Numbered from the stretch's first letter, positions 21,586 to 56,549 are shown. The stretch: 64,000 bases of DNA from Escherichia coli (GCF_044324785.1 NZ_CP172127.1); one strand, 5' to 3'. Notes: a model not told the origin generated them from the sequence alone. Made by a program: numbers and translations.

Positions 21586-21599
21586 GATCGATCTCCTTG

Positions 21600-49805: not shown

Positions 49806-50189
49806 TCAGGCCTTCTCAAGCATGGCGTGCTTCTGCAGGCTCTGGATACTCAGCGTTAAGCTCATCAGACAATTTTCAAGCTTATCGGCGTTGACGGTAA
49901 TAACAGTCGGGCAATCATGGTGCCCACTCATCAAACATACTGCGGCTGTCGCTAATGCTTCTTCAGCATGATGAAGAGCACTCCACTCTTCCTGATCCAG
50001 ATGAAGATTCAACCGCAGCGATTTATCGTGCAGTTCGCGATTCAGTTTAAAAAAGTTATCTCGTAGATGATTGCTTTCGCTGACGGACATGTATCCTTTT
50101 GCCTTCCTCAGTTGCACGTATGCGGCGAGGTCAACGCGTGCGTCGATCAACCGGTTCAGCAGATCGATTCGCTGTCTGTCAACGAACAT
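49806..50189 (-). CDS. bssR: Biofilm regulator BssR/YliH (127 aa)
   Basis: Start MFVDRQRIDLLNRL; 127 aa. Confidence 0.92.
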   Translation of the reverse strand: MFVDRQRIDLLNRLIDARVDLAAYVQLRKAKGYMSVSESNHLRDNFFKLNRELHDKSLRLNLHLDQEEWSALHHAEEALATAAVCLMSGHHDCPTVITVNADKLENCLMSLTLSIQSLQKHAMLEKA

Positions 50190-50401
50190 ACTTCGATCCT
50201 CCTCTTTCCAGCCTTGTTGCAATTAAATAGTATGGCTATTTTTTGAGCAAAATGCTGTCCAGGATCAATTCTTCACGCCGAATTAACAAAATTTACATTT
50301 CCTTCGCCTCCGCCAGTGAATGAGATTGCGATACAAATTTTATCCAGAACTCTGTAGAATCCCTGCCCTGACCTTTCCTGTAACTGAATATTTTTTAAGC
50401 T

Positions 50402-51727
50402 ATGAGCAAAGTAACTCCCCAGCCGAAAATCGGCTTTGTTTCCCTTGGCTGTCCGAAAAACCTTGTTGATTCAGAGCGTATTCTCACCGAACTACGCACT
50501 GAAGGTTATGACGTGGTACCGAGCTATGACGATGCGGACATGGTGATCGTCAACACCTGCGGCTTTATTGACAGCGCGGTACAAGAATCACTGGAAGCCA
50601 TTGGTGAAGCGTTGAATGAAAACGGCAAGGTAATTGTGACCGGTTGTCTGGGGGCAAAAGAAGATCAGATCCGCGAAGTCCACCCGAAAGTGCTGGAAAT
50701 CACCGGGCCTCATAGCTATGAGCAGGTTCTGGAGCACGTTCATCACTACGTGCCAAAACCGAAACACAACCCATTCCTGAGCCTGGTGCCAGAACAAGGC
50801 GTGAAACTGACGCCGCGTCATTATGCCTATCTGAAAATTTCTGAAGGCTGTAATCACCGCTGCACCTTCTGCATTATTCCGTCTATGCGCGGCGACCTGG
50901 TGAGCCGTCCGATTGGCGAAGTGTTAAGTGAAGCGAAACGCCTGGTAGATGCGGGCGTTAAAGAGATTCTGGTGATCTCGCAGGATACTTCCGCCTATGG
51001 CGTCGATGTTAAACATCGTACTGGCTTCCACAACGGCGAGCCGGTAAAAACCAGCATGGTCAGCCTGTGCGAACAGTTATCGAAACTGGGGATCTGGACA
51101 CGTCTGCACTACGTTTACCCTTATCCGCATGTGGACGACGTCATCCCACTGATGGCAGAAGGCAAAATCCTGCCGTATCTGGACATTCCGTTGCAGCACG
51201 CCAGCCCGCGCATTCTCAAACTGATGAAGCGTCCGGGTTCTGTAGATCGCCAACTGGCGCGCATCAAACAGTGGCGCGAAATCTGCCCGGAACTGACCCT
51301 ACGCTCAACCTTTATTGTCGGCTTCCCTGGCGAGACGGAAGAAGATTTCCAGATGCTACTCGACTTCCTGAAAGAAGCGCGTCTGGATCGCGTTGGCTGC
51401 TTTAAATACAGCCCGGTTGAAGGTGCAGACGCCAATGCCCTGCCTGACCAGGTTCCGGAAGAAGTGAAAGAAGAACGCTGGAACCGTTTCATGCAGCTGC
51501 AGCAGCAGATTTCCGCCGAGCGCCTGCAAGAGAAAGTGGGCCGTGAAATTCTGGTGATTATCGACGAAGTGGACGAAGAAGGCGCGATTGGTCGCAGCAT
51601 GGCAGATGCACCGGAAATCGACGGCGCGGTTTATCTCAATGGTGAAACCAACGTTAAGCCAGGTGATATCCTGCGTGTGAAAGTCGAGCACGCCGATGAG
51701 TACGATTTGTGGGGTAGCCGGGTTTAA
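50402..51727 (+). CDS. rimO: Ribosomal protein S12 methylthiotransferase RimO (radical SAM; 441 aa)
   Basis: Radical-SAM motif CNHRCTFC; 441 aa. Confidence 0.96.
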
Positions 51728-51733
51728 TTAATT

Positions 51734-51763
51734 CAGGCCGGGCAAAATCATTTGTCCGGCCTG
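51734..51763. terminator. Hairpin between convergent rimO and dgcI
   Basis: caggccgg...ccggcctg inverted repeat; weak U-tract. Confidence 0.4.
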
Positions 51764-51773
51764 CGAATAATGA

Positions 51774-53102
51774 TTACTGCCAGCTAATCTGAGCCCTGCC
51801 GTTTTTCTTACTCTTATACAACCGCTCATCCGCCAGCATTTTCAAGCGTTCGACGGTAGGACATTCATTTGAATGCGCTACACCGATACTGGTGCTTAAA
51901 TTAATGCTTCCCACCTGGAAATGAACGATTTCTTTTAGAATCGATAGCAACTCTTCCAGCGTTCCACCCGTATAAATCACCGCAAATTCGTCACCGCCGA
52001 AGCGGTAGACTTTACCTTTATCTACCGGGATCTGTGATTTAAGGATTTTCACCACTTTCATCAACACTTCATCGCCCAGCAAATGACCGAAGGTGTCGTT
52101 GATGTTTTTGAATTTATCGACGTCAAACAGGCACAAATAACCGCCTTTTTCCGGTAGCGCTTTTAAATCTTCGTCAAAGGATTTTCTGCCCATCGCTTTG
52201 GTCAGGTCGTCCAGGAACGCCGAGTTATACATACTGTAGAGTTTTTTGACATCGGCAGCTGAAAAGAAAAGCCCGCCATCCAGTACGCGTTCAAAATGGT
52301 TATTAATAATGGCTTCTTTCTCCACAATACCACGATTAATCACTCTGCGTACCAGATAGAGGCAACTGGCACCCGATATCACAGCCACCAATGCGGCAAA
52401 GAAAATAATCAACGTACAAACCCGCAAATAAACATCTTTTTTATACGCAAATACGTACAATCCGGTCGGCAAATAGGAGAAGTGCTCCATCGCTTCCGAA
52501 ACGGTGAAGATGGCGTTTTTAGCATTATATTCATCACCGGTCACCGGTTTACCGTTCTTAAACAGAGAGAACATCAGGTTCTCGCTATCCATCGCCAGTG
52601 ATTTTGACAGTAAAGAAAAACGCTCCAGACCAAGCAAAAATATCAGACTGCGATTGTGGGTTACCGGATAGAGGTAATAGACGAAGGTTTTACCGTCAAA
52701 AGAGATAAACCCTGTATTTTTGACATGTCGATACTTCACAACCTGCATAATATCTGCACAATAATTTTTCTCGAACTCCTTTACCTGAATACATTCGTCA
52801 CTGAAAATCAGATAAGGACCGACATCGTACAAATAAGAGGGTGAAACCGAGTCGGCGTAAGCTGTGCGCAAACCAACCAACAGCTGTTCCTCCGTGGGGT
52901 TTAGCGTGTTGATGAGATCAATTGCCACGCTACGCCGATATTCAGCAATATTTGCCACCGCAAAAGCAGTATCAATAACGGACTGTTTCAGGCCATACAC
53001 CCGTTCCTTTACCATTTGAGTGTAGATCCCGCAGGCAACTGCTGAAATCATGATAAAAATCAGCAGACTGACTGTAAGTACGAACTTATTGATTCTGGAC
53101 AT
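51774..53102 (-). CDS. dgcI: Diguanylate cyclase DgcI/YliF (442 aa)
   Basis: Intact GGDEF active site (RFGGDEFAV); two transmembrane segments flanking a periplasmic domain. Confidence 0.94.
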
Positions 53103-53109
53103 ACGTAAA

Positions 53110-55458
53110 CTACTCTTTTACTAATTTTCCACTTTTATCCCAGGCGGAGAATGGCATGGGTTTCTGGTACAGATACCCCTGAGCCTGAACACATCCTAAT
53201 TTGATTAATTCGCGCGCAACGTCTTCGCTCTCTACGCCTTCCGCAATCACCGGGATCCGGTTATAGCGTGCCAGATCGAAAATAATGCGCACAATTTTTC
53301 CCGCAGTACCGAAAATATCGCCGGTAAATTGCGAGTCCACTTTTATGCTATCTGGATTAATTTCATAAAAACGTTTCAGGTTTGACAAACCGGTGCCAAA
53401 GTCATCAATCGATATCCGTACCCCTTGTTTACGCAGTTGTTCAATATTGAGATAAAAATGTTCATTAATTCGCTCGATCACGGTTTCAGTGATCTCAACA
53501 CAGAGGCTGTTCGCCTTCAGGCCATTTTCTTTCATGATGGTGGTAAAACGCTCATGAAAGTGCGGTTCGTTTAACTGCCAGGGCGAAACATTAATATGCA
53601 GTAAGAAATCATCCTTCAGCGATGCACGCTGACTAAAATGTCTGAATTCACCCATTGCCGTTTTAATAATCTGATAACCCAGCTCATTGATAAACCCGAT
53701 ATCTTCAGCAATGGTAATGAACTTCAGCGGTGAAATGATCCCCCGCTCCGCAGACACCCAACGGCACAACGCCTCCGCGCCCAGAATGGTGCGGGTGTTA
53801 ATATCAACGATCGGCTGATAGACCAGGAATAGTTCGCCAATTTCCATTGCATGGCGAATATTACGCGCAATCCAGATATTCTCTTCTATTTCGTTGAGTT
53901 TCGCGTCATCACAGAAAATAAACTCGGAGAACATATGATCACGGATACTGGAAATCGCCAGTTTCAGTTTTTCTGCGTAACTCCAGGCGTTTTCTCCCTG
54001 CAAAGGTTCACAAATGGCAGACTTATGGATGCGCAGATTGCGGTAGCCAAAGCTGCTGTCAAAATCGTTTACCATCGCTATTTTACGGGTAAATGTCTGT
54101 ACATTTTCCCGGCACAGAAGTAAATAGAGATCGGCATTAAATGTCACGATATCGCAGCATTGCGCATATTTCTCGGCAATTCGCTGACACAATTTCCTGA
54201 CGATTTTATTGCGTTCATCAACACCAAACACCGCTTCCACGGCTTCCAGACCACACAGTTTGATGATCCCCACAGCCAGATACTGATTATTGTTGGACTC
54301 AATAATCGCCATATTTTTAATAAAACCGCTTTCCTGATCGTAAGAGATCAGTGAGAGCAATTTATTTGACCGTTCAATTTCGGCATCTTTCATTTCCGCG
54401 ATCGAATTTTTGATGCTGATAATCTCTTTCGCATCGCCTTCGCGAATTTTCAGAGCCTCGATTTGATCCGTTGAGTCAGGCAAAAACGCCAGCGTATTAA
54501 CCAGCTCTGTCATTTCAGAAAATTGCCGACGGAACACACGAGTGGTCATTAAATAAACCACCAGCAATACGATAATAATGAAAGCAAACGGCAGATAAAA
54601 AAGTTTATCTGATGCGTTCAATAAATTACCACCAGGATAATAAAAATAGATTTCGAATAATGCGTTGTTTGGCACCGCTGATGTTTTTTCGATATATTCA
54701 GTATCGACAGAATCAATAATATTATAATTACCTTCGCTATTATAAATAATTAGTTTTTCACGAGCGAGTTGATTCTTGGCAATGATCTCATGGCCTTGTT
54801 TTAAAAATAGAACTTCATCATTAGCGCTGATTTGATCAAGATACTAGTTCAGATATCGCCAGTTTAAATCGACATGAATTTTATCCACCGCTAACAAATC
54901 GTGATCTTTGCCGTTGATGTGTAGCGTAAAAGAGATACATTTTTTACCCGGACGATCAAAGCAATTGTATGCCGGATTCCAGCTGTTGTTAGAGTCATCT
55001 GAAGCCATCGACCACGGTCGTTTCGATGGGTTAAAATCGGCAAAAATAACCCGCCCTGACTCGTCGACAAGCGGTCCATTTACTTGTTCCTGATGATAAA
55101 CAACGATTTTATCATTCGCCCTCCGCGAAAAAAGATAATATTTATTATCATCAAGTACCAGTCCCACCGAGTCTAAAAATGGCATCATTTCCATTTTAAG
55201 AATCACGGCGCGTTGAATCTCCTCTGTATTTTTTAATAAATACAGTGAGTCCTTTAATGTCAGGGCCGAACGTTCAATATCTTTAAAGAAATAGCCAACG
55301 TTTTTCTGAATAAGTTCAAAGCGGCTATCGGCACGTTTTACCGCGCGCTCCGATACCAGTTGATAGTTAATGATGAAAAAAAGACCAATAAATGACAGTG
55401 CTGCCAATAAAAATAAAATTATCAGCCTTATCTTTATCTTTTCGTATAAACTCAGCAT
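53110..55458 (-). pseudogene. pdeI: c-di-GMP phosphodiesterase PdeI/YliE interrupted by one in-frame TAG (codon 205; 54844-54846)
   Basis: Two same-frame ORFs (204 codons, TAG, 577 codons) add up to exactly the 782-codon K-12 length; the downstream part retains the EAL motif (GAEALCRW). Confidence 0.8.
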
Positions 55459-55635
55459 GTTAATACATTTAACAAAATAACTATCTGAACGCTGTGCCGC
55501 TGCAAAAATTGTCCCTTGCTGCGGCTTTTTAACCAAATTACCCGATTCTACAAAATCAGCAGAAAGTTACAACACTTGCTTAGGGCAATAATTTCCTGTG
55601 AGGTGATTACCCTTTCAAGCAATATTCAAACGTAA

Positions 55636-56547
55636 CTATCCTTTAATTTTCGGATCCAGCGCATCGCGTAAACCATCGCCCAACAAATTGAACGCCAGTA
55701 CGGTCAGAAAAATAGCCAGGGTCGGAAAAACAGCGACATGCGGCGCGATAACCATATCCGCTCGTGCCTCATTGAGCATTGCTCCCCACTCTGGTGTCGG
55801 CGGCTGCGCACCGAGGCCGAGAAATGACAGGCTGGCGGCAGAGATAATCGAGGTGCCGATGCGCATGGTGAAAAACACCACGATAGAAGAGACGGTCCCA
55901 GGCAAGATATGACGCAATAAAATGGTCATATCGCTGGCACCAATACTGCGTGCTGACTCAATAAAGGTTTGCTGTTTCAACACCAGCGTGTTGCCGCGCA
56001 CCAGGCGGGCAAACGCGGGGATGGAAAAAATGGCGACAGCGATAATCACGTTAGCAATGCCGCTTCCCAACACCGCAACAACAGCGATCGCCAGTAAAAT
56101 ACCCGGGAAGGCAAACAGCACATCGCAAATGCGCATGATTAGCCGATCTGACCAGCCTTCATAATATCCAGCAAGCAAGCCCAGCAACGTCCCGATCGCC
56201 GCACCGATAAACACGGCAAACACACCCGCCGCCAGTGAGATTTGCGCACCAACCAGGACACGGCTGAAAATGTCACGCCCGAGTGAATCGACGCCAAACC
56301 AGTGCTGCAAAGAAGGTCCGTTATTCAGATTGTCATAATCGAAATAATTTTCGGCGTCATAGGGAGCGATCCAGCGTGCAAAAATGGCCACTACAATCAA
56401 TAAAATAACGAATAATGCGGCGGTCATCGCCATATGCTGACGGCGAAATCGTCGCCAGAATTCATGCCACGGTGTACGTACCTGGTCAGGTTTGACCAGT
56501 GGCATGGCGTTTAACACCGCCTGACGTCGCCAGTTAAATAGTCGCAT
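55636..56547 (-). CDS. gsiD: Glutathione ABC transporter permease GsiD (303 aa)
   Basis: Polytopic permease of the DppC type. Confidence 0.94.
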
Positions 56548-56549
56548 CC

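Follow-up and report, generated by a model that had tools for sequence, protein, structure and literature searches.

Results

The pdeI frame is interrupted once, within its periplasmic sensor region

The window analyzed here is the whole stretch of 64,000 nucleotides of Escherichia coli DNA, in which gsiD (56547..55636, minus strand), pdeI (also known as yliE; 55458..53110, minus strand), dgcI (yliF; 51774..53102, minus strand), and rimO (50402..51727, plus strand) are collinear with their K-12 counterparts. The pdeI frame spans 2,349 nt, which is the annotated length of K-12 pdeI, and consists of 782 codons and the natural stop. Direct reading of this frame, in which chance plays no part, showed that codon 205 is a premature amber TAG (54846..54844, minus strand), in the interval (54835-54855) to which the initial annotation had assigned an in-frame amber codon. 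The minus strand around the stop reads CTG AAC TAG TAT CTT GAT CAA ATC AGC GCT AAT GAT GAA GTT (WRYLN*YLDQISANDEV). When positions 55536..53110 of the minus strand were translated, codon 205 was the sole internal stop: 204 sense codons precede the TAG and 577 follow it, and the frame of 782 codons ends at the natural TAG stop at 53112..53110. The earlier count of 204 codons, the TAG, and 577 codons adding up to the length of K-12 PdeI is thus correct. The window gene aligned without gaps to the pdeI alleles of K-12, 19KM1831, and PCN033, and no second stop, frameshift, or indel was found in it in these 3 alignments.

The TAG divides the gene in 2 parts. The upstream part (54844..55458, minus strand) is an open reading frame of 204 codons plus the TAG that can still be translated and that encodes the first membrane segment (TM1), the CHASE9 domain, and part of a second periplasmic subdomain, without an output domain. 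Its exact 204-amino acid product is present in public collections as a 'CHASE9 sensor domain-containing protein'. The downstream part (53110..54843, minus strand) is an open frame of 577 codons plus the natural stop that encodes the second membrane segment (TM2), a divergent GGDEF-like region, and the EAL domain, and that is severed from the native start. Pfam searches with the collinear K-12 protein located the CHASE9 periplasmic sensor at residues 35-150 (55009..55356, minus strand; PF17153, E = 2.3e-62) and the EAL domain at residues 532-767 (53158..53865, minus strand; PF00563, E = 2e-69), and hydropathy analysis located TM1 at about residues 7-36 and TM2 at about residues 282-310. Codon 205 therefore falls in the periplasmic sensor region, past the CHASE9 match and ahead of TM2, in agreement with the N-terminal sensor location proposed initially. 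A recent preprint describes the pdeI stretch between the CHASE9 core and TM2 as a degenerate Cache module. The EAL catalytic domain had also been described as intact downstream of the stop, and both the Pfam match and the motif check bear this out, since EALCR (562), NVS (623), EITE (655), DDFG (685), EGVE (740), and QGY (760) are all present in the window translation.

The locus has the synteny (gsiD-pdeI-dgcI-rimO), the gap-free similarity, and the CHASE9 and EAL domains of a full-length pdeI orthologue, and lacks the uninterrupted frame. It contains one stop at a position where its relatives have a sense codon, which is the configuration of the single-lesion nonsense pseudogenes that PGAP labels 'internal stop'. 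Because of the TAG at codon 205, the locus (53110..55458, minus strand) is an orthologous pseudogene interrupted once and not a functional member of the pdeI family.

The stop arose from a glutamate codon and is rare

Alignment to K-12 pdeI, which differs from the window gene at 24 nt and by no indels, identified the ancestral codon at 54844..54846 as GAG (Glu205). The lesion is thus a G-to-T transversion at pdeI nucleotide 613. GAG is also present in the closest intact allele, that of 19KM1831, which differs at 5 nt: 3 synonymous changes, V463I, and codon 205 itself. This proximity to an intact allele, together with the lack of a second lesion, makes the break look recent rather than decayed, and the earlier proposal of a recent point nonsense mutation instead of old decay holds.

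The prevalence of the lesion was determined in 5,426 complete E. coli genomes, 5,425 of which matched a 2,701-bp query that includes the gene, at the locus annotated as pdeI between gsiD and dgcI. Matches to a 61-mer centered on the TAG were obtained in 5,368 genomes and were exact in only one, PCN033, which was also the only genome matched by a TAG-specific 35-mer that megablast can seed only if the TAG is present. As a rough indication of the coverage of the site, a 401-bp probe spanning it was matched over less than 80% of its length in about 43 genomes and occurred in 2 places in 27. K-12 does not share the TAG, which is lacking in 5,425 of the 5,426 complete genomes, so the condition named initially as a refutation does not hold. 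On the window allele, E205* is known from only about 3 contigs on record, and the allele belongs to a small clone.

The pdeI gene of PCN033 (NZ_CP006632.1, PPECC33_RS04325) is annotated by RefSeq/PGAP as a pseudogene with the note 'internal stop'. Like the window gene, it carries the GAG205-to-TAG change in an otherwise intact 2,349-nt frame and in the gsiD-pdeI-dgcI-rimO context. Its allele background is different, however, departing from the window at 27 other nucleotides in the gene and at 96 across 7,061 nt. The tract that both sequences have in common around the TAG is 74 nt long (nt 583-656, with differences at nt 582 and 657), which is no longer than the mean spacing of 87 nt between their SNPs. 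Since the shared tract does not exceed this spacing, import of E205* by recombination is not indicated and independent mutation is the simplest reading; from these alignments, E205* most likely arose independently in PCN033. A change of one base can create a stop in pdeI in 316 ways, and with so many possibilities and many knock-out lineages one coincident stop is unremarkable.

Separately assembled contigs contain the TAG

The reads of run ERR13187251 were assembled in Logan into a contig that matches window positions 50110-59458 (9,349 nt) without a single difference, TAG included, and 2 further similar contigs with the TAG are on record. The existence of a separately assembled identical contig makes an assembly error unlikely. 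ERR13187251 might derive from the same isolate as the window genome, so that its confirmation of the base call may be less than fully independent.

A look-up with the exact 204-amino acid stub returned 22 apparent carrier contigs, a number that we rejected as a count of TAG carriers. Nine of the 10 places returned for the stub (L005-L013) are contigs that end at pdeI nt 612-614; at nt 613, 5 of these contigs have a G, and the other 4 stop at nt 612, before the codon. As the TAG is seen in none of them, these contigs are artefacts of an exact-length look-up and not confirmed carriers; only the ERR13187251 contig and the 2 similar ones contain the TAG. They come from different samples; 8 share another pdeI allele, and L006 is close to the window allele. 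Their common end point probably reflects a bias of the exact 204-amino acid look-up; a repeat, an IS insertion, or a branch point in a strain mixture at this site is another possibility.

The other genes of the window are intact

In the window, 54 K-12 orthologues, from clpA to moeA, align end to end, and 53 of them are intact, pdeI being the only broken one. This indicates that the pdeI break is isolated and not part of a genome-wide decay, and a decaying, Shigella-like source genome was rejected on this basis.

Two other places in the window depart from K-12. About 2.65 kb separate ybjQ from ybjP (21586-24237) compared with 126 bp in K-12. This stretch contains a single, AT-rich open reading frame of 600 amino acids (21796..23598, minus strand) with a Pentapeptide_4 match in Pfam at residues 368-440 (E = 2e-4) and a weak NCBIfam match to the Hailong effector HalA (24 bits against a cut-off of 250). 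The adjacent ybjP shares only 88.6% identity with its K-12 counterpart and has a different 5' end. At the start of the window, the 3' end of the tRNA-Ser gene serW is present as 2 direct partial copies (200-262 and 375-462), and an identical terminator-like hairpin comes after each copy. In K-12, serW occupies the equivalent position ahead of clpA, whereas ARAGORN found no complete tRNA gene in the window. From their sequence, the partial serW copies resemble a junction formed by integration of an element at serW, with the window starting inside the element.

pdeI has been disrupted repeatedly in E. coli

Codon 200 of pdeI, a TGG (Trp) codon located 5 codons from the window stop, was turned into a stop in 2 separate events (L022:3646-3706 and L014:2660-2720). 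In its TGA form, W200* lies on an O103-type allele; the 225-amino acid N-terminal product of this allele occurs in 2,291 indexed blocks of the collection, and the corresponding 61-mer is exact in 4 complete genomes, including O103:H2 CEC12044 and O121 WL1277. The TAG form of W200* was found in GCA_025274305.1 and Res13-Lact-PEA14-20, on an allele that is 4 nt from the allele with the TGA form. Stops at codons 200 and 205 have thus arisen at least 4 times: W200 to TGA, W200 to TAG, and E205 to TAG on 2 alleles. Lesions of other kinds were also found. In a metagenome-derived E. coli contig (GCA_964261755.1; L019:2198-2290), a 20-bp tandem duplication (TTATTGGCAGCACTGTCATT) is present in the TM1-coding part of pdeI; as it shifts the frame, this is another independent pdeI knock-out. 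In A134_1EC, pdeI contains an IS1 insertion. According to a pangenome study from 2026 that covered 2,377 E. coli genomes, pdeI belongs, with pdeR and pdeC, to the genes most frequently found as pseudogenes (PMC13322260). Pseudogenization of pdeI is therefore a known and recurrent pattern, and the identical change has already been flagged in a RefSeq genome.

dgcI is in tandem with pdeI and may be affected by the stop

The dgcI gene is intact and encodes a protein of 442 amino acids with GGDEF at residue 369, so the GGDEF site described initially is present. The accompanying statement that dgcI is convergent with pdeI is wrong: both genes are in tandem on the same strand, dgcI starting 7 nt after the pdeI stop, and it is rimO that converges on dgcI. 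An AAGAG ribosome-binding motif of dgcI lies within the last pdeI codons. The arrangement of the sequence suggests that pdeI and dgcI, which encode a putative phosphodiesterase and a cyclase, are co-transcribed and possibly translationally coupled.

With dgcI immediately downstream on the same strand, the pdeI stop could lower dgcI expression rather than leave dgcI untouched, and we consider that dgcI expression may be lowered by polarity. The spacing of the 2 genes and their published co-regulation favor this effect. Against Rho-dependent polarity, no rut-like C-rich, G-poor tract is evident after the TAG, where the median C/G ratio is 0.85. In addition, an RpoN-binding site detected in vitro as a gSELEX peak was assigned to yliF in K-12 (PMC8743547), which indicates that dgcI may have its own promoter and also counts against polarity. 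A separate sigma-54 promoter for dgcI was searched for and rejected, as no GG-N10-GC site in the window matches more than 5 of the 12 consensus positions.

In-frame starts downstream of the stop

Three in-frame starts were considered downstream of the TAG. The first is GTG262 (54673..54675, minus strand), which is 168 nt downstream, has an anti-Shine-Dalgarno duplex of +0.1 kcal/mol, and lacks a Shine-Dalgarno match. It is followed by TTG280, 222 nt after the TAG on the same strand (−6.2 kcal/mol), and by ATG304 (54547..54549, minus strand), which lies 294 nt beyond the TAG with GGUGG ahead of it (−5.6 kcal/mol). ATG304 is located at the cytoplasmic end of TM2, and because of this position its product is predicted to be soluble. 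From these sequence features, ATG304 is the most plausible internal start and would give a soluble fragment of 479 amino acids. E. coli DEC12A has the exact 479-amino acid product on record as EHX34673.1, and some depositors call the open reading frame 'EAL domain protein'. The one carrier of this open reading frame that was read over the whole locus (L014) has W200* (TAG); for DEC12A, the analysis covered the annotated product. A consensus scan listed no new promoter created at the site by the mutation (GAGTAT to TAGTAT). Over the region, promoter-like sites (9, against 9.9 in shuffled sequence) and terminator-like sites (4, against 3.9) were not in excess.

Discussion

From the findings above, we conclude that pdeI E205* is very probably a genuine and evolutionarily recent loss-of-function allele, which adds to the many pdeI knock-outs that have arisen independently in E. 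coli. Ribosomes starting at the native ATG would terminate at codon 205 and produce a 204-residue stub anchored in the membrane and exposed to the periplasm, composed of TM1, CHASE9, and part of the second periplasmic subdomain. Missing TM2, the divergent GGDEF region, and the EAL domain, this stub would be unable to signal. The 1.7 kb downstream of the TAG would then be largely untranslated, yielding at most small amounts of a C-terminal fragment from weak internal starts, and dgcI expression may also drop through the loss of translation across pdeI.

It is extremely improbable that the TAG is a sequencing or assembly error and that the true codon is GAG. Such an error would require a change of a single base, and the source genome is absent from the complete RefSeq genomes, whose best matches reach 99.8% over the 2,701-bp pdeI region and 99.2% over 25 kb. 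However, the ERR13187251 contig is identical over 9,349 nt including the TAG and is joined by 2 similar contigs, the site is neither a homopolymer nor a Dam/Dcm motif, and PCN033 contains the identical change. We find it similarly hard to believe that a useful amount of full-length PdeI is still made because the amber codon is read through, whether naturally or with the help of a suppressor tRNA. The stop is followed by a T, and this UAG-U context, reported by Poole et al. (1995) to be an efficient termination signal, counts against readthrough. So does the rarity, to our knowledge, of amber suppressors in natural E. coli isolates, and ARAGORN found no tRNA gene in the 64-kb window. Programmed readthrough would be expected to leave the stop conserved among relatives, but the TAG context is lacking in 5,425 of 5,426 complete genomes, and only PCN033 has it, on a different allele. 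In favor of readthrough, Ojha et al. observed apparently full-length products from 2 nonsense-interrupted Shigella diguanylate cyclase genes and raised readthrough as a possibility (PMC11327459). Unlikely, although with more to be said for it, is a split gene, in which translation would start at ATG304 (or at GTG262 or TTG280) and produce a sensor-less HAMP/divergent-GGDEF/EAL fragment that turns over c-di-GMP free of periplasmic control. The EAL domain is intact with all its motifs, moderate Shine-Dalgarno-like matches precede both ATG304 and TTG280, ATG304 with its upstream GGUGG lies at the cytoplasmic end of TM2, and in Shigella flexneri dgcE, dgcQ, and dgcN still raise c-di-GMP despite their nonsense codons (PMC11327459). 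On the other hand, the alternative starts of the Shigella genes are near the stop (e.g., stop at 312 and AUG at 314) whereas here the nearest one is 57 codons away and has no Shine-Dalgarno match, EAL phosphodiesterases generally need dimerization, PdeI activity has been studied only in the membrane-anchored form, and the lack of a new promoter at the site also counts against this reading. The deregulated EAL fragment from an internal GTG or ATG that the initial annotation envisaged has a precedent in the Shigella genes and is weakly supported in the window, as the first in-frame start lies 168 nt from the TAG and lacks a Shine-Dalgarno sequence.

A different question is why pdeI is lost. Selection for the knock-out, with loss being advantageous in some niches instead of neutral, would explain the repeated hits, including that of PCN033, but we regard it as doubtful. 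This explanation draws on the occurrence of E205* on 2 alleles 27 nt apart without sign of recombination import, on the 2 different stop codons that struck codon 200 on near-identical alleles, on the fixation of the TGA form of W200* in a large lineage (2,291 blocks), and on the place of pdeI among the most pseudogenized genes (PMC13322260). However, with 316 possible stops and tens of knock-out lineages among thousands of genomes, the chance of a coincidence is several percent, and the lesions form a biased sample, having come to light in searches based on fragments of this length. Moreover, deletion of yliE in CFT073 did not change motility (PMC3484386), which fits a dispensable gene drifting to loss. 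We consider it very unlikely that the stops at codons 200 and 205 represent a recurrent, selected uncoupling of the CHASE9 sensor, in which a soluble and constitutively active fragment starting at ATG304 would retune c-di-GMP in certain lineages.

PdeI is one of 13 c-di-GMP phosphodiesterase-type proteins of E. coli. Overexpressed PdeI blocks phage N4 as other phosphodiesterases do (PMC7553319), and in a single-cell study PdeI raised c-di-GMP through its divergent GGDEF domain (PMC11651652). Because these published data conflict, the direction in which c-di-GMP would shift upon loss of PdeI is not predictable. The clone described here would be without full-length PdeI, which matters little beyond the annotation of the strain but is useful to those who study this lineage for biofilm formation, motility, persistence, or sensitivity to phage N4. 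That an unrelated strain carries the same codon change and that O103/O121-type lineages have stops 5 codons away is a small data point, and this recurrence fits the published picture in which c-di-GMP turnover genes, including pdeI, are repeatedly lost in E. coli.

Comparison with related nonsense alleles

The W200* alleles resemble that of the window in having a single nonsense codon in the periplasmic segment, 5 codons upstream, which leaves a CHASE9 stub and an open EAL-encoding remainder that gene callers annotate from ATG304. In contrast to the G-to-T change in the window, W200* is a G-to-A transition in a Trp codon, and its TGA form is widespread.

A further parallel is provided by Shigella flexneri, in which dgcE, dgcQ, and dgcN are interrupted by nonsense codons upstream of the GGDEF domain but raise c-di-GMP and give rise to several protein species (Ojha et al., J Biol Chem 2024; PMC11327459). 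Like these genes, pdeI is a c-di-GMP turnover gene with a stop between the sensor and membrane part and an intact catalytic domain. Unlike pdeI, the Shigella genes encode cyclases, have alternative starts close to the stop, and have had their activity measured, whereas the window gene encodes an EAL protein, is known here from its sequence, and does not have an alternative start close to the nonsense site, the nearest being the Shine-Dalgarno-less GTG262.
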